Source of the DNA: an uncultured Chloroflexia bacterium
GTDB taxonomy: Bacteria > Chloroflexota > Dehalococcoidia > DSTF01 > JALHUB01
Reading direction: 5' to 3'
Length of the DNA: 64,000 nt
Assembly (NCBI GenBank): GCA_963726245.1
Contig: CAVSBT010000016.1
Span: forward strand, 1-64,000
Shown here: positions 5,674 through 56,606 of the stretch, in pieces
How positions within the stretch are numbered: the first letter of the stretch is position 1
Layout of the letters: each line of letters starts with the position of its first letter
Notes under the pieces: generated by a model
What the model saw: the letters and a program-made list of their open reading frames with translations, nothing else
What the model was told of the DNA's origin: nothing
Databases searched by the model: none
Translations under genes and position numbers: made by a program

Positions 5674-6909
5674 ATGAATATCGACATCAGCGAACTTGAG
5701 GCCCCCGAATTCCAGAACCCTTTTCGGCCCGGTGCTGGCCACATGCCGCCCTACCTCGCCGGCCGCGAAACGGAGAAACGCGAATTTGCCAAGCATCTCG
5801 ACCAAGAGACAATCTTCGAGAACCTGATTCTTACCGGGCTCCGAGGAGTGGGCAAGACGGTGTTGCTGGAAACGCTGAAGCCGATCGCAATTCAGAAGGG
5901 TTGGCTCTGGGTGGGGACCGACATGTCGGAGTCCACAAGCGTCAGCGAAGCCACCTTAGCGACTCGGTTGCTTACCGATCTCGCCGTTGTGACCTCGAAC
6001 ATCGTGACGGGGGAATCGGAAAGAGTAGGCTTCGGTGCCCGCCCTACCAGTCCCCCACACACGCTCGATTTCCAGGGGCTGTCTGAGATCTGGACGGCCA
6101 CTCCTGGACTGGCCGCCGACAAGCTAAAGGCGGTGCTCGAAAGAGTGTGGCTGTACATCGAGCCTCTGAGGAAGCGGGGCATTATATTCGCGTACGATGA
6201 GGCCCAGAACTTGGCAGATCACGCGGAAAAAGACGAGTATCCTCTCTCGCTGCTTCTGGATGTGTTTCAGTCGATTCAGCGAAGAGGAATTCGCTTCATG
6301 CTCGTCCTTACCGGACTGCCAACGCTGTTCCCCAAGCTCGTAGAGGCAAGGACATTCGCTGAGCGGATGTTCCATATAGTGTTCTTGGACAAGCTGAGCA
6401 GGGAAGACAGTAAGGACGCCATTCTCAAGCCGATAGACGACGCCGCCTGCCCTGTGCAGTTCAAAGGAGGTTCTGTCGACTCGATCTATGCGATCACCCT
6501 GGGCTACCCCTATTTCATCCAGTACGTGTGCCGCGAGGTCTTTGATGTTTGGACCCAGAACCTAGCGGCCGGGGAACAATTCCGAGACATCCCTATGCCC
6601 GAAATCATGCGCAAACTCGATTCAGACTTCTTCGCTGGCCGATGGGCCCGGGCCACTGACAGACAGCGCGACTTGCTGGGTGTCGTTGCGTTGCTCGAGA
6701 ATTGCGCGTCAGAGTTCACGGTCCAAGAGATCGTGGAGAAGTCGGGAGAAGTGCTCGCCAAGCCGTTCAGCCCCAGCCATGTCAATCAGATGCTAGTCTC
6801 GCTATGCAATGCAGGACTCGTGTACAAGAATCGATGGGGCAAGTATTCGTTGGCGGTCCCGCTCCTAGACGGATTCATCCGTCGGCAGTTGGAGACGCTG
6901 CAGCGCTAG
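5674..6909 (+). CDS. Stand-alone AAA+ ATPase (AAA_16/STAND-like) with C-terminal winged helix
   Basis: NPFRPGAG..PPYLAGRE, Walker A GLRGVGKT, Walker B FAYDEAQ, GYPYFIQ; visibly more AT-rich than flanks. Confidence 0.85.
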   Translation: MNIDISELEAPEFQNPFRPGAGHMPPYLAGRETEKREFAKHLDQETIFENLILTGLRGVGKTVLLETLKPIAIQKGWLWVGTDMSESTSVSEATLATRLLTDLAVVTSNIVTGESERVGFGARPTSPPHTLDFQGLSEIWTATPGLAADKLKAVLERVWLYIEPLRKRGIIFAYDEAQNLADHAEKDEYPLSLLLDVFQSIQRRGIRFMLVLTGLPTLFPKLVEARTFAERMFHIVFLDKLSREDSKDAILKPIDDAACPVQFKGGSVDSIYAITLGYPYFIQYVCREVFDVWTQNLAAGEQFRDIPMPEIMRKLDSDFFAGRWARATDRQRDLLGVVALLENCASEFTVQEIVEKSGEVLAKPFSPSHVNQMLVSLCNAGLVYKNRWGKYSLAVPLLDGFIRRQLETLQR

Positions 6910-6992
6910 CTGCCGTTGCCCTCCTCGACCCCGAATCTCAACTTCCACAACCTCATGTGCCTCCCGTCCGGTCTCTCAGTGACAGGGCCCTG

Positions 6993-7021
6993 TTGACGGA
7001 GTAGAACACATATTCTATTCT
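6993..7021 (+). promoter_or_regulatory. Sigma70 promoter with LexA-like box upstream of the phage-like module
   Basis: TTGACG, 17 nt, TATTCT; AGAAC-ACAT-ATTCT (7003-7016) is one mismatch from AGAAC-N4-GTTCT. Confidence 0.65.
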
Positions 7022-7071
7022 TCTTGTCGCCTGGTGGCCTTTCTTCGGCAAGCTCCGGCGCCAAGCGAGAC

Positions 7072-7413
7072 ATGATTAGGCGGGCAACCCTTCCCATGTT
7101 GCACGGACTGGTGGCCGCCCAGGACCTGGTAGCGGCGGCCTGTGGCACGCTGAACGCCCTCTACTTCCTCCACTACTGGCTGCGGCGGCGCCCCAGCCCC
7201 CGGCGGCGGCTGGGGGCCGCCGCCCTGGCGACGGTGAACGCCGCCCTGGTAGTGGAGAGCCTCTTCTTCCTGGCCCTCTACGCATCGTGGCACTGGCAAG
7301 GGGCGGCGGAGCCGTTCCTGTGGCCGCCGGTGTGGCTTCTGGCCCGGCTGCCGCTGCTGCTGGGGGCCGCGTTCATCTCGGCCCTGGTGCTGCGGCAACT
7401 GCGGCGGCAGTAG
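7072..7413 (+). CDS. Small ~3-TM membrane protein (holin-like candidate)
   Basis: Three hydrophobic segments, basic loop and C-terminus; first gene after the promoter. Confidence 0.55.
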   Translation: MIRRATLPMLHGLVAAQDLVAAACGTLNALYFLHYWLRRRPSPRRRLGAAALATVNAALVVESLFFLALYASWHWQGAAEPFLWPPVWLLARLPLLLGAAFISALVLRQLRRQ

Positions 7414-7427
7414 GAGAGGAGAGGTAG

Positions 7428-7586
7428 ATGTCGCCCCTGGCGGTGGCGGTGGAGCGTCGGGCCTGGACCCTGGTAGCCCTCTACCTCCTGCTGGGCGTCG
7501 TCGAGGCGGCGTCGCGGCTGCCGCCGGAGGCGGTGGAAGGGCTGCTGGAGGCCCTGGAAGGGCCGCCCGGCCGTGGCGAAGGCTGA
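7428..7586 (+). CDS. Small hypothetical protein, 52 aa (not in the ORF track)
   Basis: SD GGAGAGG then MSPLAVAVERRAWTLVALYLLLGVVEAASRLPPEAVEGLLEALEG; overlaps the next start. Confidence 0.6.
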   Translation: MSPLAVAVERRAWTLVALYLLLGVVEAASRLPPEAVEGLLEALEGPPGRGEG

Positions 7587-7923
7587 GGGCAGCCGGCGCA
7601 AGAGGGGCCGGCGGCCGACAGCGGCGGGCTTCTACCGGTCGGCCCTGAGCGAGGCGGAGCGGCTGGCCCTCTCCGAGGCAGCGGAGATGCGCGGCCTCGA
7701 CGACGAGATAGCCGTCCTCCGCGTGAAGCTGCGAACGGCGATAGAGGAGAGTCCGCAGGACGTGAAGCTGATGTTCAAGGGGCTGGAGCTACTGGTAAAG
7801 GCGCTGGCTGCCCGCTACCGGCTCTCGCAGCAGGCGGAGGGCGAGCTCTCGGAGAGGGTGGAGGCGGTGCTGCGCGACCTGGGCGCCCCCCTCTACCCGG
7901 AGGTCTTCGGCGATGCAGCGTGA
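7573..7923 (+). CDS. Putative terminase small subunit
   Basis: GFYRSAL..LDDEIAVLRVKL helical pattern; lies upstream of TerL. Confidence 0.55.
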   Translation: MAKAEGSRRKRGRRPTAAGFYRSALSEAERLALSEAAEMRGLDDEIAVLRVKLRTAIEESPQDVKLMFKGLELLVKALAARYRLSQQAEGELSERVEAVLRDLGAPLYPEVFGDAA

Positions 7924-8158
7924 GGCGGAGGCAGAGGCCATCACCACCGAGACAGCGCCCGCCGGGCGGCGGCGCGGCGCCCAGACGGGCCCAAGGGGTC
8001 CGCGGCAGGGGAGCGCCGCCGCTTTCCGCGCCGCCGTGGAGGAGCGCCTGCGCGCCCTGGAGCGGGAGATGGCGGAGGTGAAGGGCCGGATCAACGGCCT
8101 CATCTTCCTCATCGCCGGGACGGTGGCGACGCAGGTCATCCTCCGCCTCATGCAGTAG
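7913..8158 (+). CDS. Small coiled-coil plus C-terminal TM protein
   Basis: VEERLRALEREMAEVKGRIN followed by hydrophobic GLIFLIAGTVATQVIL. Confidence 0.6.
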   Translation: MQREAEAEAITTETAPAGRRRGAQTGPRGPRQGSAAAFRAAVEERLRALEREMAEVKGRINGLIFLIAGTVATQVILRLMQ

Positions 8159-9637
8159 ATGGCCGGTCGCAGGCAGGCGCCCGCCGGGGCCGGGCCCGGG
8201 ATAGGGGTGCGGCTCCGCCCCTACCAGGTGGAGGCCGGACGGGCCGTCCTGGACAGCGTCTTCGGCGGCCGCGGCCTCACCATCTCGGTCATGATGGCCC
8301 GCCAGGGAGGCAAGAACGAGCTCTCGGCCCAGCTAGAGGTCCTGTTGCTGACCGCCCACATCCTCATCGACGCCGACGCCATCAAGTGCGCGCCCACCTT
8401 CGAGCCGCAGGCGCGCCTCAGCATGCGACGCCTGTGGACGCGGCTCCAGGAGGCCGGCCTGGGCCCCTGGTGCCAGCGCGAGGGGCCGGGGGCTATCCGC
8501 CTGGGGCGGGCGCGCCAGGTGTTCCTGTCGGCCGAGCCGGGAAGCAACGTGGTGGGGCACACGGCGCGCATCCTGCTGGAGGTGGACGAGAGCCAGGACG
8601 TGGACCGGGAGAAGTTCGACCGCGACTTCCGGCCGATGGCGGCGGTCGCCAACGCGACCACCGTCCACTACGGCACCGCCTGGGAGGAGACCTCTCTCCT
8701 GGAGCAGGTGAAGCAATCGAACCTGGAGCTGGAGCGCCGGGACGGCCTGCGCCGCCACTTCGAGTACGACTGGCAGGTGGTGGCGCGCCACAACCCGGCC
8801 TACGGCCGCTTCGTGGAGGCGGAGCGCCAGCGCCTGGGCGAAAGCCATCCCCTCTTCCTCACCCAGTACTGTCTGCGCACCCTGGCCGGAGGCGGGCGCC
8901 TGCTCTCGACGCAGCAGCGGGCCCAGCTCCAGGGCGACCACCCGCGCCTGAGCCGCCCGCAATCCGGCGAGACCTACGTCGCCGGGCTGGACCTGGCGGG
9001 CCAGGGCAGCCTCGAAGGCGGCCGAGGCGGAGGGCCTGCCGGGCGAGGGCGTGACCCTTCGGCCCTTCGACAAGCTCAGGGCGCAGCGGGCTCAGGGCGA
9101 GACGCGTCGGTGCTCACCATCGCCCGGCTGATCCTGCCGCCCTCGGACGCCCTGGTGCAGGAGCCGCGCCTGGAGGTGGTGGAGCACTGCGCCTGGGTGG
9201 GCGAGCCCCACGACCGCCTCTACGAGCGCCTGGTCGACCTGCTGCGGGAGGTGTGGCGCGTGCGGCGGGTGGCGGTGGACGCCACGGGCCTGGGGGAGAC
9301 GCTGGCCGCGTGGCTGGCCCGGGCCCTGGGCCGGGACACCGTGGCGCCGGTGCGCTTCAGCGCCGAGAGCAAGTCGCGGCTGGGCTACAACCTGCTGGCG
9401 GCGGTCAACGGCGGCCGCCTCAAGGTCTACGCCGGCGACGGCTCGGCCGAGTACCGGACTCTCTGGCAGGAGATGGAGCGGGCGCGGGTCGCCTACCGGG
9501 CGAACCGGACCATGAACTTCTACGTCGACCCCTCGGAAGGGCATGACGACTACCTGATGAGCCTGGCCTTGACGGTGGAGGCGGCGACGGGCGCCCGGCC
9601 ACGGACGGCTCGGGGCCGCCTGCGGGGGGAGCCGTGA
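8159..9637 (+). CDS. Phage terminase large subunit
   Basis: LRPYQ adenine motif, Walker A ARQGGKNE, Walker B LLEVDESQD, nuclease motifs YVAGLDLAG, VAVDATGLG and HDDYLMSLAL. Confidence 0.85.
   Translation: MAGRRQAPAGAGPGIGVRLRPYQVEAGRAVLDSVFGGRGLTISVMMARQGGKNELSAQLEVLLLTAHILIDADAIKCAPTFEPQARLSMRRLWTRLQEAGLGPWCQREGPGAIRLGRARQVFLSAEPGSNVVGHTARILLEVDESQDVDREKFDRDFRPMAAVANATTVHYGTAWEETSLLEQVKQSNLELERRDGLRRHFEYDWQVVARHNPAYGRFVEAERQRLGESHPLFLTQYCLRTLAGGGRLLSTQQRAQLQGDHPRLSRPQSGETYVAGLDLAGQGSLEGGRGGGPAGRGRDPSALRQAQGAAGSGRDASVLTIARLILPPSDALVQEPRLEVVEHCAWVGEPHDRLYERLVDLLREVWRVRRVAVDATGLGETLAAWLARALGRDTVAPVRFSAESKSRLGYNLLAAVNGGRLKVYAGDGSAEYRTLWQEMERARVAYRANRTMNFYVDPSEGHDDYLMSLALTVEAATGARPRTARGRLRGEP
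9008..9100. repeat. In-frame palindromic repeat (MITE/REP-like) insertion within terL
   Basis: GCCCTTCGACAAGCTCAGGGC nested inside CCCTTCG...GGCTCAGGGCGA; encodes a low-complexity loop. Confidence 0.6.
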
Positions 9638-9638
9638 G

Positions 9639-10029
9639 ATGCAACAGCGCGAAGCCCTGCAACAACGCGAAGCCCTCGGCGAGGGGTGCCTGCTGCTTCC
9701 CGCCCGGCGGGTGCGGGAGGACGCCCTGCCCGAGAACCTGGAATACGCCGACAGCGGCTGCGACCTCTGGGACCGCTGCCTGACCTGCCCTCTGCCGCGC
9801 TGTCGCTACGACGAGCCGGGCGGGGCGCGACAGATCTTCCTGCGGGAGCGGGACCGCGAGATCGCCCGGCTGTATCGGGCGCGACGGGGTGAGCATCGAC
9901 GCGCTGGCGCGCCGGTTCGGCATCTCCCGTCGCAGCGTCTTCCGCAGCCTGAGGAGGGCGACGAGCAGGCGGCGGGCCATCCGGCAGGCGGGGCAGGCAT
10001 CGTGGAGGCGATGGCCGGGCTTCGCGTAG
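9639..10029 (+). CDS. Cys-rich domain plus HTH putative regulator (frameshift ~9880)
   Basis: YADSGCDLWDRCLTCPLPRCRYDEP, then in another frame GVSIDALARRFGISRRSVFRSL (HTH). Confidence 0.65.
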
Positions 10030-10043
10030 CTGGAGGTGACAGC

Positions 10044-11427
10044 ATGAACGGGATGACTCTTCCCCAGCAGCTTCAGCGCATGGACGTGGAGCGCCTGCGG
10101 GCCTACGTCGACAACCTGGCCTTCTACCAGGGCGAGCAGTGGCTGGGCGTGCAGCGCCGGCGGGAGCGCCGCCTGACCTTCAACTACGCCAAGGCGCTGG
10201 TGGAGAAGACCACTTCCTACCTGATAAGCGGGATAACCTTCGCCGTGGACCCCGTCGACCCGTCGCCGGAGGCGGCGGAGCGGGCCCGGGCCGCCGAGCG
10301 GGCGCTCGCTGGAGGTGTACGAGGCCAACCAGCTCGCGCAGCTCGACTTCGACACGGAGCTGGACACGGCCGTCCTGGGCGACGGCGCCTTCAAGGTGAC
10401 CTGGGACGCCGCCGAGCGCCGCGTGCGCGTGTCGGCGCCCGACGTGCAGGGGCTCTTCGTCTGGTGGCTGGGCGACGACGTCTCCCGCCTCTGGCGGGTG
10501 GCCAGTCGCTACTACCTGCTGCCGGAGGAGGTGGAGATGCTGCACGGCGTCCGCCCCCGCACGACCGGTCGCGGCGCCACACGGGTGTCGGCGGGCCTGC
10601 CTGCCGGACAGGCGGGCGGGCGCGCCCGCGGGTCGGAGGTGGTGGAGGTCTGGACGGCCTCGGACTTCGAGCTGTGGGTGGACAGCGTGCTGGTGGAGGC
10701 CAAGGCCAACCCCTACGGCTTCATCCCCTTCGTCATCTACCCCAACCTGCGGGAGCCCAAGCGCTTCTGGGGCGTCTCCGACCTGCCGGCCATCAAGGAG
10801 TCGGTGCGGGAGCTGAACCGGGCCCTGTCGCAGCTATCGATGATCCTGGAGCTGTCGGGGAACCCCATCGCCGTGCTGGAGAACGTGAGCGAGTCGCAGG
10901 ACATCGCCGTGCAGCCGGGGGCGGTGTGGGAGCTGCCGGAGAGGGCGCGGGCCTACCTGCTGGACCTCCTCCAGGGGGGCGGCGTCAAGCTGCACGTGGA
11001 CTTCGTGGACCTCATCTACCGCACGCTGCACGACCTGGGCGAATCGCCGCGGACGGCCTTCGGGGAGAACCGGCAGAGCCTGTCGGGGGTGGCCCTGAAC
11101 GTGGAGCTGGACCCGCTGCTGAAGAAGGTGCAGCGCAAGCGGCTGATCCGCACGGCGGCCTACAAGCGCCGCAACGAGCTGATCCTGCGCCTGCTGGAGC
11201 AGCAGACGGGGGTCTCCTACGCGCCCTACCGGTCGCGCATCGTCTGGGGGGCGGTGCTGCCGCAGGACCGCAGCCGGCTGGTGGCCGACGAGCAGGCGCT
11301 GGTGGCGGCGGGGATCCACAGCCGCCGCCGCGCCGCCGACGAGCTGGGCGTGGAGGACCCGGAGAGCGAGTTCAAGCGCTGGCTGGAGGAGGAGGGGAGC
11401 GCGGGGAGGGAAGGGGCGGGGGCGTGA
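10044..11427 (+). CDS. Phage portal protein (SPP1 gp6-like; frameshift ~10305)
   Basis: LAFYQGEQW..LTFNYAKALVEK, AVLGDGAFKV, NPYGFIPFVIYPN..FWGVSDL and LSGVAL motifs. Confidence 0.82.
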
Positions 11428-11501
11428 GCGGGGGAGGGAGTAGGGAAAGGTACAAGCGGCCCCGGCCTAAGAGCCGAGAGCGCTTATGACACAGCGACCC
11501 G

Positions 11502-12352
11502 CTACACCTCGTACTCGGCTGGCGCCTCTCGGAAGAGACGCATCTGACCGCTGGCTGATCGGGCGGTGATCTTCTCCCAAAAATCCTCGCCCCTCTCGCT
11601 CTTGCTGGCGAACACTAGGTGGTACAGTCCCACGTGACGCGAGTTTGTGATCCGGACATCGTCCACGACCCACGTGTATCCCAGCTTGCGCAACTGCTCT
11701 TCATAGCAGTCCAGCAATATCCGGCTCCGCTCTCGCCGACCGGCCCGAAGTGACCGGTCATACGCGTCCCTCCAGAGCCGCGTCCCGAAGAACGAATCGA
11801 GACTTTTCGGCTCGTAGGCGGCCGCTCTTTTCATACCGCCGACATGAAAGGTGATGACAAGGTCCATGCGGCGGTTGGCGGTCAGCGCTGCGATGGATTC
11901 AAGCGCTATTTGCCAGTTGGACGGGTCAACAAAGGCGAGGTCGAGAGACCGGCCCGGCAACACTGACCGAATGCGAGGGATCACCGCGTTGCAGTCTCCT
12001 GAGAAGTACGTTGCGGTTGGGCCGCCGATCCGCATCCGCCCGTTTCTTGAGTGCCTCAACCGCTTCTGGCTCCAAATCGTTGAAGAAGCATCGGGTGAAA
12101 GGAACGTGGGACCTCAGAGCCGCGACAGCAGAGCCCTCTATCTCATGACTTCCCGCAAAGAGCCGCCCCGCACCGCAGAACAGGTCAATATATGATTCGC
12201 TCGGACCACTTCTTCTGCATCCCCGCGTTGAAGATGTAGAAGTAGCGCGCAAGATAGAACAGCTTGTCCTTCGCCCATGCTCCGGTACGCCAGGCAATCA
12301 GGTCGTCTGAGGCCAGTGCCCACTCCCGACTCTTCTCTGCGCTCTCGCTCAT
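11502..12352 (-). CDS. tcmP: Three-Cys-motif partner protein TcmP (methyltransferase-like); two frameshifts
   Basis: Reconstructed GAWAKDKLFYLARY, YIDLFCGAG, EGSAVAAL, GDCN, LAFVDP and LYHLVFASKSERG..FW. Confidence 0.72.
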
Positions 12353-13272
12353 CTACTCCGCTCGCTTCTGGCCATTCAGTGCGGCGGTGTAGCAGCACCC
12401 GTCGTGCTCGCAGCCCCAGCCGCCGGTACAGCGCGACCGTCTCCTTGCAGGGGTGTACCGGCACTTCGGGGTCGTGGCGGCGTACGGCCTCAATGGCAGC
12501 CTCATACAAGGCGGCGCGCGTCTCCAGGGGGATGCGCTTGCGCCCGTCCTCCGGTGACCTCTCACCGCCAAAGGCGTAGATGGACGTGTCCCTCCCCACG
12601 CGTCGGGCCCAGCCGGGCAGCCCCGGGTAGTAGCGGAGGCTGCCCAGCGTCCACTGGTTTGGCCGGAACAGGTCATAGACGGCATCGATAAGCGACGGGT
12701 ACTCCTCCTGCCAGCCGTCGAGCGGGCATCATAGGGTCCAAACGCAGCGTGACGTAGTAGCCAGCGTCCTTGACCCGCGCGGCGGCCTCCGCGCGGCGCA
12801 GAGGATGCGGCGTCCCCAGCTCGTAGCGCTGCCAGACGGAAGGCGCGTTGACAGAGAAGGCGACGATGACCTGGCCCTGGGGGTCCCACTTCAAGAGGTT
12901 GCGCACGTTGGTCGACTTGGTCACCAGCAAGAGCTTGTGCCGGTTCTGGGCAGCAAACCGCGGCACCAAGTCGTCGACCAGAGGGATCTGCCCGTCCAGA
13001 GCCAGCGAGTCCTCTAGCTCCCCAGCGTTCAACCTCAACTGGCCGGGCTGCGCGAGCCATTCGTCGAGTTCCGCAAGCAGCTTCTCACGGTTGGTGTAGA
13101 CAACGGGGTCTATCCTGCCCCGGAAGGTGCCCTGAAGATAGCAGTAGGTGCACTTGTACGGGCATCCTATGTAGTAGCTGAGCGCATGAAAGGGCCCGCA
13201 GACAATGCCGGGTTTGGCCGTATTGTTGAGGTGGATGAACGCGGACCTGCGCTCCCTGACCTGGTATCCCAA
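12353..13272 (-). CDS. Spore photoproduct lyase-like radical SAM protein; frameshifts near 12720 and 12590
   Basis: GCPYKCTYCYLQ (CxxxCxxC), GELEDSLALD, VTKSTNV, FSVN, YELGTP..RR, LRLDP and CKET motifs. Confidence 0.75.
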
Positions 13273-13381
13273 CGCGCCGCTCCTCTTGTGTCGGCGGAAC
13301 TATACCAGCTAATGCTCCGCGCGTGAAGCCAGAGTCTCCGGCACCCCTGGTCTCAGCCCGCCGCCCGGTGACACATCCCCA

Positions 13382-13411
13382 TTGACCAGTATAGAACATA
13401 TCTTCTATTCT
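13382..13411 (+). promoter_or_regulatory. Second sigma70 promoter with LexA-like box (structural-gene operon)
   Basis: TTGACC, 18 nt, TATTCT; AGAAC-ATAT-CTTCT (13393-13406); same layout as 6993-7021. Confidence 0.65.
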
Positions 13412-13453
13412 CCCCTCCGTCAAGCCCTTCATCCAGGTGAAAGAGAGGAGTCC

Positions 13454-13873
13454 ATGAGCGAGGAGGACCTTTCGGAGTTGCAGGATCGGCTGACCGAGGC
13501 GCAGGCCGAGGTGGAACGCCTCCAGACCATGGCCGCCGACCGCGAGGCACGCGCCGCCCAGGATGTCTACGTCTACTACGGCAAGCTCCACACCCTCGAC
13601 GCCAGTACCTCGACCGTCCCGGCGGCGCTGGAGGACGTGGTGGCCACGGGGTCGGCCGCCTACGCAGCGTTGGAATGGGCCACCTTCGCCACCAACCGCG
13701 TCAACGTCGGCGGTTCCGACGTGTGGCGGCAGTACCTGGTGTGGGGCCAGGAGCGCCTGGCCGCCTTTGCCCGCGAGCTGGCGCGCCGCGGACGGCGGGC
13801 CGGGGTGCGCGTGCGCCGCCTCTACCGGCCCGCCGCCCCTGCCGACCTGCGCTCGACGCCTTGGGAGCCCTAG
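13454..13873 (+). CDS. Probable chimera: scaffold-like coiled-coil N-terminus fused to head-tail adaptor-like C-terminus
   Basis: Abrupt switch near 13560 from acidic coiled-coil (LSELQDRLTEAQAEVERLQ) to YYGKLHTLDASTSTVP..NRVNVGG. Confidence 0.55.
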   Translation: MSEEDLSELQDRLTEAQAEVERLQTMAADREARAAQDVYVYYGKLHTLDASTSTVPAALEDVVATGSAAYAALEWATFATNRVNVGGSDVWRQYLVWGQERLAAFARELARRGRRAGVRVRRLYRPAAPADLRSTPWEP

Positions 13874-13876
13874 CCC

Positions 13877-15853
13877 GTGCGCGCCCTTCCCAGCGACCTC
13901 CTGGCGGCGCAGAGAAGCGCCTCGGCCGTGCCCTACGTGCTGGTGCGCGTGAGTGAGCGCGTCGCCCACGCGGTCCGGCTGCGCTGGGAGCGGCTCTACA
14001 CCGGGAGCGAGCCCGAATCCTACCACGCCGCCACCGTCCCGTCGGACGGCTCGCTGCTGCGGGCCCGGAGCACGGGAGGCCAGCTCTACTATCAGCGCGT
14101 GGCCAACCCCGGGCCGGGCAGCAACTTCTCATCTTGGACGTCAGTGGCTTCGGTGTCGGCGACGGGGGGTCTGGCTCTAACGAGCCGGGGGAGCAGCGTC
14201 CTCCTCTTCTCCGTCCACACCAACAACGTGACCATCCACGTGCGCGAGAGCGCCGACAGCGGAGCGACCTTCGGCTCGCCGGTGACGGTGGCGACGGCCT
14301 CGGGAGCGGTAGTCTGGATGGCGGCCGGCCTTAAGAGCGACGGTACCGCCCTCCTGGTCTACTCGGTGGGGGCGACCGTCTACAGGGTGAAGCGGGTGAG
14401 CGGAGTGTGGGGCTCGCCGGCGGCCTGGAGCCACAGCCTGGCCTCGGTGAGCGGCCTGGCCTGCAATTATTACTTCGACTTCGACATCGCGGTGGCCGGC
14501 AGCCAGTCGGGTGGCGCGACCGGCATATGGACCGTCATCTACGGCGACGGCTACAACCAGACGCTCGATACCTGGTCGCCCCTCATGGAGCTGACCCTGG
14601 CCAGCGCTGGCTCCAGCGTGGAATTCCGGGCGCCCGCTCTCGCCGTCGTGGGGCGCTACCGGCTCTTCTTCGACGAGAAGTACACGGGGAGCCAGGCCTA
14701 CAGCCGCGCCTACTGGACCCATCTGGCCCCGTTGCAGGAGTTCCTGACCAACACCTGGCGTGAGCCTGTCGTCATGGATATCGGTGGCGATTTCGGCGTG
14801 GCGTCTGCGGCCGGGTCGGCCTACGGCTGGCTCTCGACCCCGTCCGGGGTCTGGCGAGCGAGCCTCAGCGCCCCGTCCCTTGACCTCAGCGAGGACATCC
14901 TGGAAGTCTATGTTGAGACGCGGCCCCAGGAAGGACGCCTGAAGGTTGTCCTCCGCAACGACGACGGCCGCTACAACGATCTTACGGGCGGCGCCTGCGC
15001 GGCCATCCGCTGCGGCTCGGAGGCGGAGTTCAGCCCCGGCTACCTGACCGCGTCCGGGCCGCTGGTCTCGCCCGGGGCCCGATACTGGATAGAGGGCTGG
15101 GACTACGTCAACGACCGCGGGCGGGCTCGCTTCGTCATCCACGCCAGCGACTCCTGGGCGCTGCTCGCCAACTGGCGGGCGCGGCGACAGTTCGCCTGGG
15201 AGGCCGGCGAACGCACGGTGTGCGAGCTGCTGGAGTTCGTCCTGGGACGCGCCGCCTTGGGGTTCAGCACTGTCAGCCCCAGCGACGCAGTCACCAGCCT
15301 GTCGCCCGCCTTCACTATCCAACCCGCCGAGAGCGGCAAGGCCGCCGTGGGCCGCCTGCTGGCCATGGTGCCGGACGTGCTGTTCGTCTCGGGCGAGTAC
15401 GGCTACCTCGTGAATCCTACCGCCGCTCAGGCCACAGACTATGAGTACGGGACCGAGCACGCGATCCTCGGAGGGCGCTACGGCTGCCGGTCTGCGTCCT
15501 TCAACCGCGTGCAGGTCTTCGGCCAGAGCCTGATGGTGGAGGACTTCGACTGGACCGGCGTGGGCGACATCTACGACCGGCTGCACCAGGACCACGACCG
15601 CAACCTCACCTCGGTAGCGGCCGCCCAGGACCGCGCCGACGCCTTCCTGCGCCACCAGGAGATGGAGGCTGCCGACGACGAGCTGCTAGTACCCGCCAAC
15701 TGCGGCCAGGAGCTGTACGACGTGGTGGAGGTGACCGACCCGATGGCCGGGCTCTCCGCGGCCCGCCGGCGCGTGCTGGCGATAAGCCTCCGTTACACAA
15801 GGGATAGCCCCACGCCCGCCTACGAGATGCGGCTTCGCTTGGGAGCTGTCTGA
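13877..15853 (+). CDS. Large virion-like protein: N-terminal beta-propeller-like region, C-terminal baseplate hub-like region
   Basis: Ser/Gly/Trp-rich beta pattern with Asp-box-like RESADSGATFG; LKVVLRNDDGRY and PANCGQELYDVVEVTD hub-like segments. Confidence 0.55.
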   Translation: MRALPSDLLAAQRSASAVPYVLVRVSERVAHAVRLRWERLYTGSEPESYHAATVPSDGSLLRARSTGGQLYYQRVANPGPGSNFSSWTSVASVSATGGLALTSRGSSVLLFSVHTNNVTIHVRESADSGATFGSPVTVATASGAVVWMAAGLKSDGTALLVYSVGATVYRVKRVSGVWGSPAAWSHSLASVSGLACNYYFDFDIAVAGSQSGGATGIWTVIYGDGYNQTLDTWSPLMELTLASAGSSVEFRAPALAVVGRYRLFFDEKYTGSQAYSRAYWTHLAPLQEFLTNTWREPVVMDIGGDFGVASAAGSAYGWLSTPSGVWRASLSAPSLDLSEDILEVYVETRPQEGRLKVVLRNDDGRYNDLTGGACAAIRCGSEAEFSPGYLTASGPLVSPGARYWIEGWDYVNDRGRARFVIHASDSWALLANWRARRQFAWEAGERTVCELLEFVLGRAALGFSTVSPSDAVTSLSPAFTIQPAESGKAAVGRLLAMVPDVLFVSGEYGYLVNPTAAQATDYEYGTEHAILGGRYGCRSASFNRVQVFGQSLMVEDFDWTGVGDIYDRLHQDHDRNLTSVAAAQDRADAFLRHQEMEAADDELLVPANCGQELYDVVEVTDPMAGLSAARRRVLAISLRYTRDSPTPAYEMRLRLGAV

Positions 15854-15863
15854 GGGGCTGAAG

Positions 15864-16076
15864 ATGAACCTGCGCCAGGGGACACTGAAGTCGTTCGATT
15901 CCGGCTCCTACACAGCGACGGTGCAGGTGGCGGGAAGCCTGGCCGTCTGGCTGGCCGGCGTTCCCGTGAACCGCGGCATCCCTCAGGGGGAGATGGTTAC
16001 CGGCCGCCGCTGCGCCCTCCTCTTCTTCGACGATGCCAACCCCGGCGACGCCGTGCTTGTCGCCATCTACACGTAG
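15864..16076 (+). CDS. Small beta protein, OB-fold spike/baseplate-like
   Basis: 70 aa, GTLKSFDSGSYTATVQV..VPV..GRRCALLF pattern like gpV/gp5 N-terminal OB folds. Confidence 0.5.
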   Translation: MNLRQGTLKSFDSGSYTATVQVAGSLAVWLAGVPVNRGIPQGEMVTGRRCALLFFDDANPGDAVLVAIYT

Positions 16077-16318: not shown

Positions 16319-16606
16319 ATGACGGAGCAGCGGGAACGTTCCCACGTTGGGCACCGGGTGGTCGGGACCATAAAGGCGGTGAAAGGCAACTGCTCCTGGG
16401 GCCACAAGGTGGGCGACACCGTCGAGGTGAGCGCCCACGACACCGCTGGCCTCTGCGGCTTCCTCTACCACGAGATCTTCCCCTACGTCGTCATGCTCCA
16501 GTTCGGGGGCGGCTTCCCCGCAGCGTGGGGAGGTCCCGACAGCGTAGAGCTGGAGTGCATGGACCGCTGGAACGCCGTCAAGATAGAGCTCCGAAGGGAG
16601 GACTGA
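16319..16606 (+). CDS. TIGR04076-like small Cys protein
   Basis: [22 protein letters not shown] and ECMD motifs. Confidence 0.7.
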
Positions 16607-16649
16607 CCCTCTGGGGCCGCCAACGGCAGGCCCAGAGCCGGACCCCACC

Positions 16650-17687
16650 ATGCCCGAACGCATCCTCTCCGGTAAGCCTCGCGAGGAAGACATAGCCCTC
16701 GATACGTCCCTGCGGCCCCGGCGGCTCGCCGACTACGTGGGCCAGGAGAAGATCAAGGACAACCTGCGCATCGCCATCGCCGCCGCCCAGCAGCGCGGCG
16801 AGCCCCTCGACCACGTCCTCCTCTACGGGCCGCCCGGCCTGGGCAAGACCACCCTCGCCTACATCATCGCCGCCGAGATGGGCGTGAGCATCCGCATCAC
16901 CTCGGGGCCGGCCATCGAGCGGCCGGGGGACCTCGCTGCCATCCTCACCAACCTCCAGCAGGACGACATCCTCTTCATCGACGAGATCCACCGCCTGGCG
17001 CGGTCGGTGGAGGAGATCCTCTACCCGGCCATGGAGGACTTCGGCCTGGACCTGGTGCTGGGCAAGGGCCCCGGCGCCCGCAGCGTGCGCCTGTCCCTCC
17101 CCCGCTTCACCCTCATCGGGGCCACGACGCGCTACGCCATGATGAGCCCGCCGCTGCGCGACCGCTTCGGCGCCGTCTATCGCCTGGACTTCTACGACCG
17201 GGAGGCGATAGCGGCCATCATCCGCCGCAGCGCCCGCATACTGGCGGTGGAGATCGAGGAGGGCGGCACGCAGGAGGTCGCGCGCCGGGCCCGCGGCACG
17301 CCCCGCGTCGCCAACCGGCTCCTGAGGCGCGTCCGCGACTACGCCCAGGTGATGGCCGACGGCGTCATCACGGAGCCCGTCGCGCGGGAGGCGCTCGCCC
17401 GCCTGGAGATCGACGACCTGGGGCTGGACGAGGTGGACCACAAGGTGCTGCGCTCCATCATCGAGAAGTTCGACGGCGGGCCCGTGGGGCTGGACACCAT
17501 CGCCGCCTCCATCTCGGAGGAGTCCGACACCATCATGGACGTCTACGAGCCCTACCTGATGCAGGTGGGCTTCATCCAGCGCACGCCCCGCGGCCGGGTG
17601 GCCACGCGCCTCGCCTACGAGCACCTGGGCCTGCCGCCCAAGGGGCCGGCGCCCTCGGCCCAGCCGCAGTTGTGGGACACGCCCTGA
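16650..17687 (+). CDS. ruvB: Holliday junction branch migration helicase RuvB
   Basis: [29 protein letters not shown] and [13 protein letters not shown] motifs. Confidence 0.97.
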
Positions 17688-17699
17688 CCGGCCACACGC

Positions 17700-18251
17700 C
17701 CGAAGAACGTCATCGCCGTTCCATCCGGCTGCCAGCGATATGATTACGCATCGCCCGGCGCCTATTTCGTGACAGTCTGCGCGTACGGCAAGGAATGTAT
17801 CTTTGACGTGCCGGAGTTGCGCGAGGCCATAGAGGAAGCGTGGCACCAGATCCCTTTTCATTTTCCGAACGCCAGATTGGACGAAGCCGTTGTCATGCCA
17901 AATCACCTGCATGGCATTGTCTGGATAGTCGTAGGGGCGCAGCATGCTGCGCCCCTACATGCTGGCCGTACACGAACCGGTCAAGCTCTGGCTCTCTGGG
18001 GGCTGTTGTGCGTTCCTTCAAGTCCGCCGCAGCCAAACGTGTGAATGAGATCCGCGGCACGCCCGGCGCGCCCGTCTGGCAGCGCAACTACTACGAGCGG
18101 GTGATCCGCGACGAGGATGAGTTGAGCTAGCATCCGCGAGTACATCGGCCTCAACCCGTTGAAGTGGGAGCTTGACCGCGAGAACCTCCATCACGTGGCG
18201 AGCCGCGAGTACACAAGGCAGTGGGGCTGGCTGGAAGGAGACCAGGAGTAG
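17700..18251 (+). mobile_element. REP-associated tyrosine transposase (RAYT, Y1/IS200-like); disrupted or frameshifted
   Basis: RRSIRL..YDY..GAYFVTVC, VVMPNHLHG (HUH), VRSFKS, VWQRNYYERVIRD and YI..NP motifs. Confidence 0.8.
17931..17958. repeat. GTAG-type REP palindrome inside the RAYT
   Basis: Perfect palindrome GTAGGGGCGCAGCATGCTGCGCCCCTAC. Confidence 0.85.
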
Positions 18252-18377
18252 GGGCGCAGCATGCTGCGCCCAACCTGCCGGCCGACCAGCGCGCTAAGCC
18301 CTGCCCCCAACCGTAGGGGTGCCCCTCGCGGGCGCCCGCAACGCGCCGTCGCGGGCAGGGGCGAGCCCTGCCCCTAC
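18248..18377. repeat. REP cluster downstream of the RAYT
   Basis: GTAGGGGCGCAGCATGCTGCGCCC and GTAGGGG...CCCCTAC doublet. Confidence 0.8.
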
Positions 18378-28183: not shown

Positions 28184-29276
28184 TTGGCAATAGCTAGTAC
28201 CTATCCCGTGACCCTTGCCGTCGATTACCCGGATCGGACGTCGCGGTGGAAGACACTCTTGCGTCTTCTGCTTGCCATCCCGCTCTTCATCTTCTCCTAC
28301 CTCCTGGGCAGCGGTGTCGTCCTGGCCGCATGGGCGGCCATTCTGGTAAAGGGGCGCATACCTCGATGGCTCTTTGACTTCCAGGTAGCGTACAACCGCT
28401 GGCAGCTTCGCGTTGGCTCCTATTTCCTGCTCCTTACCGATCAATATCCGCCCTTCCAGGGCGACTATCCGATTCGATACGACGTCCAGTATCCGGAGCG
28501 GCTCTCCCGCTGGAAGCTGGTGATCTGGAAGTTCATCACTTCCGTTCCGCACTTCATCGTCCTTGCCTTTCTCACGCTGATCTTGGTGGCGGTGATGGTG
28601 CTGGCGTGGTTTTACGTGCTCATCGCCGGGCGCTTCCCGCGAGGCCTGCATCTGTTCGTCGCGGGCATTCTCCGATGGTCAGCGCGGGTTCAGGCCTACT
28701 TCTTCTCGCTAACAGACGAGTTTCCACCATTCAGCCTCGCGGCCGACGCTGGCTCTGGCAGCAGAGACTCCTACGTCATCTCCGCCGTCCTTGGCTTACT
28801 GGCTACCGGCGGCGTTATTGCCGGCATCGTCACCTTGGCGATCATCGCAGGAGGGGAGAAGGTGGTGGAGGTGTCTTACGCGAACCTGCTGGACGGGACG
28901 CCCGGCGGCTGCCGTCACGGTGGATTCGGTCATGGTTGAGCTCAACCGGGCCACTGACCCGGCCGATGACCTTGTGTCCTATCTCAGGCCTCGGCCAGGC
29001 TACCGCTTCGTCGTCTTCGAACTTACTATTGACAACGGGCGTCGCATTGACTTGCCGATCCGGGCGTCTGACTTTCGGCTGAAGGACGAGGAGAGCAACG
29101 GCCACGACCCCTACCTGGTTCTTGTGGGCGGGCGGATCCCTCGCGTGGATCTTCCAACTCGAGGGAGCGCTAACGCGCGTTTGGTTTTCGAGCTGCCCAA
29201 AGATGTGAACCCCGCGGAGCTACGCTACAACTCGGGCTTTGGCTTCTCCAAGACGGTCGTCTACGAGTTCCGTTAG
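28184..29276 (+). CDS. DUF4389 protein with C-terminal DUF4352-like Ig domain (frameshift ~28905)
   Basis: TDQYPPF and TDEFPPF; then [28 protein letters not shown]. Confidence 0.7.
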
Positions 29277-29280
29277 ACCG

Positions 29281-31563
29281 ATGGCAGTGGACCATACCCT
29301 CCTCGAGCAGATAGCCCTCTCCCAAGACGAGTACGAGCTCATCGTCTCCCGCCTGGGCCGCGAGCCCAACGAGGTGGAGCTGGGCATGTTCGGCGCCCTC
29401 TGGAGCGAGCACTGCGGCTACAAGCACAGCAAGCCCCTCCTGCGCCTGCTCCCGAACACCGGCCCCCGCGTGCTCACCAGCATGGGCGGCGAGAACGCCG
29501 GCGCCATCGACATCGGCGACGGGCTCTGCGTGGTGATGAAGGTCGAGTCGCACAACCACCCGTCCGTCGTGGAGCCCTACCAGGGGGCGGCCACCGGCGT
29601 GGGCGGCATCGTGCGCGACATCTTCGCCATGGGGGCGCGGCCCATCGCCATCCTGGACTCGCTGCGCTTCGGCCCGCTCAGCGAGCGGCACAACCGCTAC
29701 CTCTTCGGCGGCGTCGTCGGCGGGCATCGGCGGCTACGGCAACTGCCTGGGCATCCCCACCGTGGCCGGCGAGGTGAGCTTCGACGGCTCCTACTCCGGC
29801 AACCCGCTGGTGAACGCCATGTGCGTGGGCTACGCCCGCATCGACCACCTGGCGCGGGCCCGCGCCGAGGGTCCCGGCAACCCGCTGCTGCTGGTGGGGG
29901 CCGACACCGGCCGCGACGGCATCGGCGGCGCCAACGTCCTCGCCTCCCGCGTCTTCGACGAAGGCAGCGCCGAGCTGCGGCCCACGGTGCAGGTGGGCAA
30001 CCCCTTCCTGGAGAAGCTCCTCATGGAGGCCTGCGTCGACCTGGCCGAGAACCACCCCGACTGGTTCGTCGGCATCCAGGACCTGGGGGCGGCCGGCCTC
30101 ACCAGCTCCAGCATCGAGGCCGCTGCCCGCGCCGGCACCGGCCTGGAGATCGACATCTCGCGCGTGCCCCGGCGCGAGGAGGGGATGAACGCCTACGAGG
30201 TGATGCTCTCCGAGTCCCAGGAACGCATGCTCATCATCCCCCACCGCGAGCACCTCGACGACGTGCGCGCCCTCTTCGAGCGCTGGGAGCTGCGCTCCGA
30301 CATCATCGGCGTGGTGACGGACGACGGCCTGGCGCGCATCCGCGACGGCGACCAGGAGGTGGCCTGCCTGCCGGTCGACGTGCTCGTGGACCCGCCGGAG
30401 TACCGGCTCCAAGGCCAGGCGCCGGCCTACCTGGCCGGGTGTCCAGGCCTTCGACCCCTCGTCGCTGCCCGACCTGCCGGACCTGCCGGTCGGCCGGATT
30501 CTGGAGGGCTTCCACCTGCCGCCGCCCGCTTCCGGCCTCTCGACGGCGGAGGCGGCCCTCTGGCGGCTGCTGGCCTGCCCGGAGATCGCCAGCAAGCGCT
30601 GGGTCTGGCGCCAGTACGACCACCAGGTCCTCACCAACACGGTGAAGGGGCCGGGCGCCGACGCCGCCGTCATGCGCGTCAAGGGCGCCCGCAGCGCCAT
30701 CGCCCTCACCACCGACGGCAGCGGCCGCCTCTGCTACCTGGACCCCTACGCCGGCGGCGTCCTGGCCGTGGCCGAGGCGGCGCGCAACGTGGTCTGCGTC
30801 GGCGCGGAGCCGCTGGCGCTCACCGACTGCCTCAACTTCGGCAACCCCGAGCGGCTGGACGTCTACTACCAGCTCGAGCAGGCCGTCTCGGGGATGGCCG
30901 AGGCCTGCCGCGCTCTGAACGTGCCCGTCGTCTCGGGCAACGTCAGCCTCTACAACGAGACCTCCGGCGAGTCCATCTACCCGACGCCCGTCGTGGGCAT
31001 GATGGGGCTGCTGGAGGATGTCGAGCGGCGCTGCGACATGGGCTTCCAGGCCGGCGGCGACCTCGTCTTCCTCCTGGGCGCCGGCCTCGACGGCGCCGGC
31101 CGCCTCCCTGGCGGGCAGCGACTACCTGAACGAGGTGCACGGCCTCGTGGCCGGGCGTCCCAGCATCGACCTGGCCCTGGAGGTGCGGGTGCAGCGGGCC
31201 TGCCTCGAGGCCATCCGCCGCGGCCTCCTGCGCTCCGCCCACGACTGCTCCCACGGCGGGCTGGCGGTGACCGTCGCCGAGAGCTGCATCGCCTCCGGTC
31301 GGGGGCTGGACGCCTCAGGCCTCGCCTTCGCGGGGCGCCTGGACGCCGCCCTCTTCGGCGAGGCGCCCTCGCGCATCGTGGTGTCGTGCGCGGCGGCGGC
31401 CCGCGGCGACCTGGAGGCGCTGGCCGCCTCGCACGACGTGCCCCTCACCTACCTCGGAGCCGTCGGCGGCGACCGCCTGCGCCTGGGGCCGCACATCGAC
31501 CTGCCCGTCTCCGAGCTCGCCCGCGCCTACGAGGAGGGCCTGCCCCGCGCGCTCGAGGGGTAG
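29281..31563 (+). CDS. purL: FGAM synthase subunit PurL (about three frameshifts)
   Basis: [47 protein letters not shown] and AHDCSHGGL motifs. Confidence 0.93.
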
Positions 31564-31574
31564 GGACACACCCG

Positions 31575-31735
31575 TCAACGGATGCCACAATGGATCACGG
31601 GATGGCGTTCATCCGTTAATCCGTTCCCTATCCGCTGACAGGCCCAGTCGCAGCCGCAGAGCGTGTTATGTGAGCCTGTAGGCCAGGCTTTCCAGCCTGG
31701 CCTCTTAGCGCGCCGAGGCTGAAAGCCTCGGCTAC
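31575..31735. repeat. Intergenic palindromic/REP elements
   Basis: AACGGATG...CATCCGTT; GTAGGCCAGGCTTTCCAGCCTGGCC; GCCGAGGCTGAAAGCCTCGGCTAC. Confidence 0.65.
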
Positions 31736-31769: not shown

Positions 31770-31798
31770 TTGACATACAGAACAGGCGTTCCTATGAT
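31770..31798 (+). promoter_or_regulatory. Sigma70 promoter with a perfect GAAC-N4-GTTC SOS box
   Basis: TTGACA, 17 nt, TATGAT; GAAC-AGGC-GTTC at 31780-31791 within the spacer. Confidence 0.75.
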
Positions 31799-44607: not shown

Positions 44608-47548
<2,941 letters not shown>

Positions 47549-55878: not shown

Positions 55879-55979
55879 ACGCCTCCCCAGGGCCGGCGCC
55901 CACCTCCCCGCTCGACCAGCCGGCCTCGACGCCTCCTCGACCGGAGGTCGAGAGTCCGCCACCACCCCAAAGTGGTTGC

Positions 55980-56606
55980 CTATCGTGAGTAGAATTCGAC
56001 AATGACGCTGGCATCAAACTTCGCTTCGGTATCGCCCAGACCGGGCGGACTCAGCACGCGCCCCACCATGGCTTCGGTGTCCAAGTTCAGCCATCCAGGG
56101 ACGCGCGCACTCTTCGCCATTTGCTGCGCTATTTTGAAAGCCTCCGTTTCCTTGCTGGGTGCTCGCCAGCCGATGACGTCGCCGGCCTTCACCTGGCAGG
56201 AAGGCACGTCGGTCTTCCGGCCGTTGAGGAGGATATGGCCGTGACGGACCACCTGGCGGGCCTGGGAACGGGAATCGGCGAAACCCAGACGGTAGATCAC
56301 GTTGTCGAGACGCATCTCCAGCAGACGCAGGAGGTTCTCTCCCGTGACGCCCGGCCGGTGCACGGCTTCCCGATAGTAGCGACGGAACTGGCGCTCCATG
56401 ATGCCGTAGCTGTAGCGCGCCTTCTGCTTCTCGCGAAGCTGGAGGGCGCGGTCGGACACCCGGCGCCGCCGCGGGCTGCGGTTCCCCGGGGGAGTGGGGC
56501 GCTTCTCGAAGGCGCACTTCGGGCCGAAGCAGCGCTCCCCCTTCAGCATGAGCTTGTCGCCGTAGCGGCGACAGAGCCTACAGACCGGTCCGGTGTATCG
56601 AGCCAT
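55980..56606 (-). CDS. rpsD: 30S ribosomal protein S4
   Basis: [14 protein letters not shown] and [13 protein letters not shown]. Confidence 0.97.

Follow-up and report, generated by a model that had tools for sequence, protein, structure and literature searches.

The gene transfer agent (GTA) of Rhodobacter capsulatus, RcGTA, is encoded at dispersed loci and is controlled by the host regulators LexA and CtrA as well as by a dedicated activator, GafA. In phage GIL01 of Bacillus thuringiensis, lysogeny is controlled by host LexA together with small phage proteins, and the late promoter is switched on by a LexA-like protein of the phage. Here we describe a phage-derived gene module in a 64-kb stretch of DNA of roughly 68% GC, hereafter the window, from an uncultured bacterium of the Chloroflexota lineage Dehalococcoidia (contig CAVSBT010000016.1, positions 1 to 64,000), together with two promoters, P1 and P2, that precede its packaging and structural genes and that each carry a palindrome resembling the box bound by LexA, the repressor of the SOS response. 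The module resembles RcGTA in that phage-derived head, portal and terminase genes have become fixed in a host lineage under purifying selection, in that several units appear to be under common control, and in that no integrase or replication genes were seen nearby. It differs from RcGTA in belonging to another phylum, in being built from unrelated podovirus-like parts of the epsilon15/SU10 type, and in having an operator in every promoter, and it is known from its genes alone. With GIL01 it shares host-type LexA boxes in its promoters and a small, element-encoded, predicted DNA-binding protein (here called gR); however, GIL01 is an autonomous temperate phage whereas the module is chromosomally fixed, and gR combines a four-cysteine (Cys4) part with a helix-turn-helix (HTH) instead of adopting a LexA-like fold.

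The palindrome itself has its closest counterpart in Gram-positive bacteria. In its passages on LexA motifs, PMC3323433 gives GAAC-N4-GTTC as the motif of Firmicutes and Actinobacteria and lists Chloroflexi among the groups that were left out as lacking a defined motif and/or genomes; the module's boxes have the same 4-N4-4 palindrome core as the Gram-positive SOS (Cheo/LexA) boxes of Bacillus subtilis and Mycobacterium (PMC3323433). They likewise have an AT-rich spacer, most commonly ATAT here, and are placed over the core promoter. Unlike the Gram-positive SOS boxes, however, the module box extends to 16 bp (TA-GAAC-N4-GTTC-TA), is locked in register to the -35 and -10 hexamers, and is paired with a further element, GTGACA; and unlike the consensus SOS box, the two boxes of the window lack the inner G, with LexA binding being predicted from the sequence.

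Our best reading of the sequence comparison is that P1 and P2 represent paralogous copies of a single composite promoter that marks every transcription unit of the module, and this palindrome promoter appears to be a hallmark of a phage-derived gene set retained across a bacterial class. That the units answer to a shared regulator and that the module has been domesticated are readings strongly supported by the comparison, and LexA is a plausible candidate for the protein that binds.

A composite promoter at P1, P2 and their orthologues

A preliminary description of this DNA had proposed twin promoters with the common layout of a -35 hexamer, a LexA-like box and an overlapping TATTCT -10 hexamer, and we found both strings exactly as it gave them, TTGACGGAGTAGAACACATATTCTATTCT at 6993-7021 (P1) and TTGACCAGTATAGAACATATCTTCTATTCT at 13382-13411 (P2). 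In a consensus promoter scan these read TTGACG-17-TATTCT and TTGACC-18-TATTCT, each scoring 9/12, with spacers of 17 and 18 nt that agree with the 16-18 nt separating the -35 and -10 hexamers of sigma-70-type promoters. All parts lie on the plus strand: the -35 hexamers TTGACG and TTGACC at 6993..6998 and 13382..13387, the predicted operators TAGAACACATATTCTA and TAGAACATATCTTCTA at 7002..7017 and 13392..13407, and the TATTCT -10 hexamers at 7016..7021 and 13406..13411. Operator and core promoter overlap, with the box filling the 17-18 nt spacer and sharing two bases with the -10; in P1 the operator's last two bases are the first two of the hexamer. The P1 operator, a palindrome of 16 bp, departs from TAGAAC-N4-GTTCTA at one position, and the P2 palindrome has orthologous boxes at the scaffold starts of relatives. 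Also as previously claimed, each box differs from AGAAC-N4-GTTCT at a single position, where the right-half G is replaced by A in P1 and by C in P2 (cores GAAC-ACAT-ATTC and GAAC-ATAT-CTTC, each with one mismatch to GAAC-N4-GTTC).

Using shuffled sequence as the chance control for motif counts, we found that AGAAC-N5-TTCT occurs at only 2 sites in the 64 kb, compared with an expectation of 0.08 and with 2 of 100 shuffles reaching 2. The 20-mer TAGAACAYATNTTCTATTCT, allowed up to three mismatches, matched only the P1 and P2 sites, plus the second site on the opposite strand (expectation 0.00). The palindrome TAGAA-N6-TTCTA is perfect in both sites, and at one mismatch or fewer it has 3 matches in the window against 0.13 expected, a number reached by 0 of 100 shuffles.

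Relatives of the module were collected through its large terminase. A homologue search returned more than 3898 terminase homologues, the best 120 of which cover identities of 65-95%; few of these 120 bear names, and those that do are from Dehalococcoidia or Chloroflexi. A scan of species-representative genomes found at least 554 stretches encoding a relative at 50-93% identity, and 80 loci were kept (L001 and so on), nearly all labelled Dehalococcoidia or Chloroflexota and ranging over 47-71% GC and 50-95% terminase identity. One of them, L007 (JAIVWR010000121.1), is a 4.4-kb contig of very low coverage that carries the module at 69% terminase identity under the label Acidobacteriota, which is probably a binning error rather than a transfer.

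Conservation of the motif upstream of orthologues was a test set beforehand, and the motif proved to be kept. Of 81 sources, 8 with less than 200 nt upstream were dropped, and in 67 of the 73 testable loci the terminase operon is preceded by a box, which is perfect in 12, has one mismatch in 48 and two mismatches in 7. One further locus has a match with three mismatches only, and five have no box, four of these (L022, L033, L047 and L056) having short upstream sequence. Over the 1.21 Mb of loci used for box counts, TAGAACNNNNGTTCTA has 14 perfect matches, 71 with one mismatch and 27 with two, compared with block-shuffle expectations of 0, 1.4 and 15.4, respectively. A 6-mer count that was blind to the motif, taken over the 250 nt upstream of the small gene gA in the 31 loci whose operon head can be placed by gA, recovered pieces of the same cassette: TTCTAT in 24/31, GTTCTA in 20/31, TTGACG in 17/31 and GTGACA in 13/31, each with a count of 0 in coding controls. 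Perfect GAAC-N4-GTTC cores are frequent in the orthologous promoters of relatives.

The scaffold operon was examined in the 24 loci that have a scaffold gene, where a box with at most two mismatches lies by the estimated start in 18 and a box with three mismatches in 2. In the remaining 4 the start estimate is off: L038 and L041 carry boxes at 5309 and 14227, and in L053 and L065 the scaffold comes after the portal and the box heads the portal unit. Where the portal is separate from the terminase (L038, L039, L044, L053 and L065), a box promoter lies ahead of gR-portal, and boxes elsewhere, as far as checked, all front a coiled-coil scaffold-like open reading frame (ORF) or another module gene. 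Extra cassettes were also observed within the module, either ahead of the gene p132 or at two places, in front of gB and immediately in front of the terminase (L011 19530; L026 9294 and 9711; L032 4991 and 6371; L034 8604 and 9942), and the number of transcription units therefore differs by lineage.

The complete cassette consists of GTGACA, 8 nt, the -35 TTGAC, 3-4 nt, and the palindrome TAGAAC-N4-GTTCTA, whose final TA opens a -10 of the form TAnnnT. We aligned 83 sites with at most one mismatch to the box, and found that the -35 TTGAC ends 3 or 4 nt ahead of the box in 62, that the spacer is ATAT in 26, and that the sixth base of the -10, which lies 4 nt past the box and outside the search pattern, is T in all 83. 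The -35 and positions A2 and T6 of the -10 are conserved among orthologues.

GTGACA is a second, module-specific promoter element that the preliminary description missed. It lies at 6979..6984 (+) in P1, 8 nt 5′ of the -35, and at 13368..13373 (+) in P2, where it was located by alignment with relatives. With the 83 sites aligned on the -35, it occupies positions -14 to -9 relative to that hexamer at invariant spacing, position -12 being G and position -10 being C in 79 sites each. The exact string GTGACA-N8-TTGAC occurs 28 times on both strands of 1.27 Mb, in every case followed by the box, and 0 times in shuffles. When P1 and P2 of the window were aligned with those of its nearest relatives, only four blocks stood out as conserved, namely GTGACA, the -35, the palindrome and the -10. 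The distal element drifts with lineage from GTGACA to xCGACA; the palindrome consensus stays constant over the full span of GC content and terminase identity of the kept loci.

A variant of the right half-site, GTGCTA, is produced by G at box position 13 in 19 of the 83 sites and makes a TGn extended -10; it is common in low-GC loci without a -35. We suggest that it tunes the promoter from inside the operator and leaves operator specificity unchanged. Examples of GTGCTA were seen in L041 (9141), L053 (9459 and 13685), L064 (1193), L072 (9480), L075 (4154), L077 (8988) and L079 (1866).

Candidate regulators of the cassette

Because the palindrome is a LexA box of the Gram-positive type, host LexA would be the most likely repressor, and we assign the palindrome to it with somewhat better than even confidence. 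The LexA of Dehalococcoides ethenogenes is reported, in a 2002 J Bacteriol study, to have the same motif. A dimeric repressor seated on the palindrome would fill the space between -35 and -10 and block RNA polymerase, and RecA-stimulated cleavage of LexA upon DNA damage would lead to all units being transcribed together. The preliminary description had held that the host SOS repressor or a shared regulator, rather than a phage CI, controls both operons. The repeated copies of the cassette bear out a shared factor, and the window region holds no divergent CI/Cro pair; a host repressor acting by itself is too simple, however, because the module encodes gR and its promoters carry GTGACA, and control is thus more elaborate than had been proposed.

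The gene for gR lies at 9639..10043 (+), between terminase and portal, and its product has a Cys4 part and a C-terminal HTH. The four cysteines are invariant, orthologues match HTH_23, HTH_7 and Sigma70_r4_2, and an intact gR ORF is present in 50 of the 80 loci. The predicted structure (predicted local distance difference test, pLDDT, 81) superposes through its HTH on DeoR, KorA, ArdK and sigma-4 domains at about 0.7-0.9 Å; the fold search matched the HTH alone, at E ≥ 0.23, and function is therefore not assigned by fold. One protein of this size class acting on operators repeated across the operons of a single element, as proposed here, is known from KorA/KorB of plasmid RK2 and from ArdK of R388. 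The gR HTH fits KorA/ArdK at about 0.9 Å over roughly 37 residues, which at E ≥ 0.23 is not significant, and unlike KorA and ArdK, gR has an additional Cys4 N-terminal part. The Mor/C activators of phage Mu bind just upstream of the -35. Like them, gR is a small HTH protein, and the morphogenesis promoters of the module have a conserved site just 5′ of the -35; Mor sites, by contrast, are dyads whereas GTGACA is a single 6-mer, and the Pfam Mor matches of gR orthologues are weak (E 7e-5 to 0.02), falling under the gathering threshold.

In L041, L047, L050, L053, L063, L065 and L073, the recognition helix of gR carries Q where other loci have F, Y or H. Where these loci have a promoter in view (L047 has none), the distal element is xCGACA, in L050 in one of two promoters, and L020 is an exception, with F in the gR helix and GCGACA as its distal element. 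A module-specific factor most likely binds GTGACA, and gR would be the best, if speculative, candidate. Bound at GTGACA, some 44-49 nt 5′ of the likely start site, gR might act as an activator in positive feedback, which is likewise speculative.

Several points weigh against host LexA as the common regulator of these promoters or limit what can be built upon it. Both boxes in the window lack the G of the right half-site. The LexA assignment, made from sequence, has no lexA, recA or uvrA promoter from these organisms as a reference: E. coli K-12 LexA, RecA, UvrA, UvrB, RuvA, DinB and Ssb used as tblastn probes matched nothing in either the window or the 80 loci, and the sole match to an SOS gene came from the RuvB probe, which identified the window's ruvB, a gene without a box of its own. 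All boxes with one mismatch or fewer in the 1.2 Mb belong to the module and none lies at a classical SOS gene, in a sample whose one such gene is the window's ruvB. Perfect cores number 50 in the 1.27 Mb, and the 12 that lie outside module promoters are at chance level (about 13 estimated from base composition). GTGACA is also conserved class-wide, and conservation alone is therefore no proof of a global regulator. The predicted fold of gR resembles the repressors KorA and ArdK, and gR itself could bind the palindrome. The gR-Q loci are all low in GC and probably form one clade, so the covariation of the gR helix with the distal element amounts to one event at most, a link that probably rests on that single clade and has L020 as its exception.

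The assembly also looks indel-prone. Relative to L001, gR in the window has a 1-nt G insertion just ahead of the HTH (near 9877) that shifts the frame, and the portal gene has a 1-nt C insertion near 10308, where its frame changes. We did not accept these frameshifts as gene decay and read them as probable assembly errors, because the essential genes for PurL, MetK and RpoA are also split across reading frames in the window (29239-31619, 46289-47375 and 54664-56017, respectively); as they stand, the frameshifts of gR and portal allow no interpretation.

A last such point is that the loose core GAAC-N4-GTTC, at one mismatch or fewer, is not enriched in the window (14 compared with 16.5 expected), and the signal therefore sits in the extended 16-mer and its promoter context rather than in the 8-base core. 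This absence of enrichment is what one would expect if the resemblance of the sites were due to chance or to a generic promoter shape of the genome, an explanation to which we give practically no credence: the shuffle expectations for the 16-mer and for GTGACA-N8-TTGAC are about 0, both recur at orthologous positions, and the comparative data refute it.

As the main rival reading, a private repressor encoded by the module, with a gR dimer as the candidate, could instead occupy the palindrome at every module promoter, much as KorA acts on plasmid RK2, in which case the likeness to a LexA site would be coincidental or vestigial and DNA damage would not be the signal. In favour, at least 50 of 80 loci encode gR within the module, with a clear HTH that superposes on the operator-binding domains of KorA, ArdK and DeoR, every box with at most one mismatch in the sample lies at a module gene, and the module-only GTGACA shows that private cis elements can persist class-wide. 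We nevertheless consider such a repressor rather unlikely. The recognition helix of gR varies (F, Y, H and Q), yet perfect and variant palindromes occur together within single gR-Q genomes, and palindrome specificity is therefore not tracking gR, whose sole covariation is with the distal element. Moreover, the fold matches on which the comparison draws have E ≥ 0.23, a product that represses its own operon would provide autoregulation only and no inducing signal, and a host LexA of Gram-positive specificity would bind these sites anyway.

The outer TA...TA extension of the palindrome is conserved beyond the classical 12-bp LexA core, as might be expected if another host global regulator recognised TAGAAC-N4-GTTCTA and tied the module to some cue besides DNA damage, for instance growth phase or stress. 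The core and its AT-rich spacer fit the Gram-positive LexA consensus, however, and we know of no host regulator of that other specificity, so that we regard this explanation as quite improbable and retain host LexA as the preferred repressor.

Two intergenic cores were seen outside the module. The first, at 31770-31798 of the window, is a promoter-like site (TTGACA-17-TATGAT) whose spacer holds a perfect GAAC-AGGC-GTTC and which lacks GTGACA. This site is some 170 nt 5′ of rplI-dnaB, behind purL, after a hairpin that appears terminator-like by eye; the same repressor may act on it as a target outside the module, or its presence may be due to chance. The second is in L009 (640-730, minus strand), where CGAACGTATGTTCC comes after a TTGCAT-17-TACCAT promoter and lies about 40 nt 5′ of a recombination gene of the RmuC family (rmuC). 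We take CGAACGTATGTTCC to be a full match to the B. subtilis Cheo consensus, and its position at rmuC hints at use of a classical SOS box in this lineage. Together these two cores are suggestive, at a frequency near chance level.

Probable domestication of the module

The full gene set comprises small membrane proteins, gB, terminase, gR, portal, scaffold, a capsid protein of the epsilon15/HK97 type, an SU10-type adaptor and a tail protein; these parts are podovirus-like and only distant kin of those of sequenced phages. Domestication, which the preliminary description had advanced, is well supported, because the module is class-wide, has conserved chromosomal neighbours and is under purifying selection, with ratios of nonsynonymous to synonymous substitution rates (dN/dS) of 0.17-0.28. 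Conserved gene order, together with this selection and range, is what sequence comparison should reveal for a domesticated phage that is vertically inherited under selection. A HIT gene lies upstream in 22 of the 80 loci, unrelated host genes are interleaved with those of the module, and some genomes have parts of the module at other places. Upstream of P1 the loci differ from one another, and no conserved regulator gene flanks P1. Searches of window positions 4-18 kb with Pfam and PHROGs found no genes for integration, replication or lysogeny, annotation of the flanks in the other loci being less than exhaustive, and neither a tRNA, attachment-site (att) repeats, an integrase nor a CI/Cro pair is present in the window region, which thus lacks the marks of a temperate prophage.

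The phage origin of the terminase, portal, capsid, adaptor and tail genes, and the decay of the window copy by deletion (see below), could bring to mind an ordinary recent temperate prophage or its remnant, with CI-type immunity and with the twin promoters serving as phage late promoters. Such an origin is very unlikely in our estimation: besides the missing integrase, tRNA, att repeats and CI/Cro pair, the at least 554 genome stretches that encode a relative, the wide GC span, the common chromosomal neighbours and dN/dS of about 0.2 all argue against it, as does the interleaving of host genes among fragments that each retain a cassette of their own. From the sequence, then, we favour, with moderate confidence, a class-wide, domesticated, GTA-like regulon of podovirus descent with an SOS-type operator.

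A search limited to one library of papers found no description of such an element in Dehalococcoidia. We propose more tentatively, and as something short of probable, that Dehalococcoidia as a class carry an undescribed GTA-like element, a domesticated head, portal, terminase and tail gene set of podovirus type that is scattered over two to four chromosomal units and governed by a LexA-type switch, closed until DNA is damaged, and by positive feedback of gR at GTGACA. Dehalococcoidia reach high abundance in sediments, in aquifers and in consortia used for bioremediation, and they are hard to grow and genetically intractable. If the proposal is correct, it would add a new GTA-like system in a new phylum and a candidate natural route of gene exchange in Dehalococcoidia, would place damage-triggered particle production, perhaps along with exchange of DNA, among the core traits of a major subsurface and organohalide-respiring lineage, and would provide a defined promoter/operator cassette ready for probing LexA control in these bacteria. 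The cassette further shows how a domesticated element stays co-regulated despite being broken up by host genes, with each fragment keeping or regaining a control unit of about 45 bp.

Packaging and structural units in the window

P1 apparently still heads a complete packaging operon in the window. Its first gene, gA (7072..7413, +), encodes a small hydrophobic protein with conserved synteny by tblastn in 38 of 80 loci and no family match in Pfam, PHROGs or NCBIfam. It is followed by gB (7573..7923, +), which encodes a conserved, all-helical protein of 116 aa and adjoins the terminase in 68 of 80 loci (dN/dS 0.22-0.25). The predicted structure of gB is good (pLDDT 82), yet it has no fold match in the PDB at E ≤ 0.001 and no family match in Pfam, PHROGs or NCBIfam, and we set aside the idea that it is a hidden repressor or a small terminase. 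Next, gC (7913..8158, +) encodes 81 aa, helical by eye with a hydrophobic C-terminal segment, and has a weak match to phrog_9511.

The large terminase-like ATPase/nuclease (8159..9637, +) has weak matches to Terminase_6C and to PHROG terminases, and its motifs ARQGGKNE and LLLEVDEAQ are conserved among relatives. The nearest phage terminases are 25-30% identical, with matches in 5 of 50,697 phage records. Beyond gR, the SPP1-type portal (10044..11427, +) matches Pfam SPP1_portal at 6e-13 and phrog_64 at 6e-23. Compared among the window, L001, L002 and L003, dN/dS was 0.17-0.23 for the terminase and 0.17-0.28 for the portal. By tblastn, the order gA-gB-gC-terminase-gR-portal is found in most loci, and in the most distant loci only gB and terminase remain together. 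NCBIfam has no family for the terminase, portal, gB, gR or tail protein, which leaves a gap in annotation. Upstream of P1, an AAA-ATPase gene (window 5674-6909; phrog_6841, 2e-58) lies between a conserved HD gene and the promoter; it has no counterpart in the 80 loci and is therefore an insertion specific to this genome.

Behind P2 the structural genes are incomplete. The first ORF (13454..13873, +) is a chimera of 139 aa, identified by tblastn and blastn, in which scaffold residues 1-35 are fused in frame to adaptor residues 97-210. Window positions 13445-13560 match L002 16693-16808 at 89% and positions 13553-13803 match L002 20276-20526 at 84% (blastn), from which it follows that about 3.47 kb is absent from the window. 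Lost with this segment are the remainder of the scaffold, the capsid gene, p132, p286, p82 and the first part of the adaptor, and no capsid gene was found elsewhere in the window. In the closest relatives more is retained: L001 (terminase 93% identical) has at least the scaffold before its contig ends, and L002 (87% identical) has scaffold, capsid gene, p132 and adaptor. The view that P1 and P2 drive a packaging and a structural operon therefore stands for P1, and for P2 the structural operon in the window is a deletion remnant. Because the deletion took the capsid gene, the window copy alone is predicted to be unable to build heads, and the particle production anticipated in the preliminary description is not expected from this copy by itself, with scaffold, capsid gene and part of the adaptor gone.

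In relatives, the second block sits at a variable distance, behind unrelated genes. In L004 and L041 it encodes a coiled-coil scaffold-like protein, the major capsid protein, three proteins without assignment, an SU10-type adaptor, and proteins of 658 and 70 aa. The capsid protein of relatives matches phrog_212 at 4e-68 and NCBIfam MCP_gp7_epsi_15 at 1e-55, with at most 38.5% identity to sequenced phages, and the adaptor matches Pfam SU10_adaptor. The window retains the 658-aa, tail-type protein (13877..15853, +), which has no sequence match in Pfam, PHROGs, NCBIfam or the PDB; its Atlas neighbours belong to auto-named clusters ('Phage tail protein family' and Sipho_Gp37-like), and its orthologues come after the adaptor in L004, L038, L041 and L053. 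We considered and rejected this protein as the capsid, given that it has no capsid match and tail proteins as its Atlas neighbours, and that the true capsid gene lies in the deleted segment. It is followed, as in relatives, by g70 (70 aa; 15864..16076, +).

Two neighbouring genes lie outside the module. A radical SAM gene resembling spore photoproduct lyase (12353..13272, minus strand; Pfam SPL 4e-18, NCBIfam photo_TT_lyase below cut-off) is transcribed away from P2 and seems to be divided between two frames. Among the loci, L003, L048 and L066 are the only ones with a gene of this kind between portal and scaffold. Promoter-like sites on the minus strand were noted at 13327-13299 and 13423-13395, the latter (TTGACG-17-TATGTT) overlapping the P2 operator, and the P2 palindrome might act in both directions in the sublineage of the window. 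We make no claim for the radical SAM gene as a second target of the P2 operator, its adjacency being limited to the window and L003 and not found in L048 or L066.

On the other side, the last gene of the module is followed, in the same orientation, by a gene of the TIGR04076 family and then by ruvB (16319-17687), with a 44-nt gap before ruvB (16650..17687, +; Pfam RuvB_N 6e-80; 58% identical to E. coli RuvB). No terminator-like sites were called between 13411 and 16650, and ruvB may be read through from P2 in the window genome only; as a real SOS target of P2 it was rejected, since ruvB does not adjoin the module in L038 or L041. Finally, 3′ of ruvB we observed two identical 24-nt, GC-rich palindromic copies of GTAGGGGCGCAGCATGCTGCGCCC, at 17931-17954 and 18248-18271, which resemble either repetitive extragenic palindromic elements or terminators.

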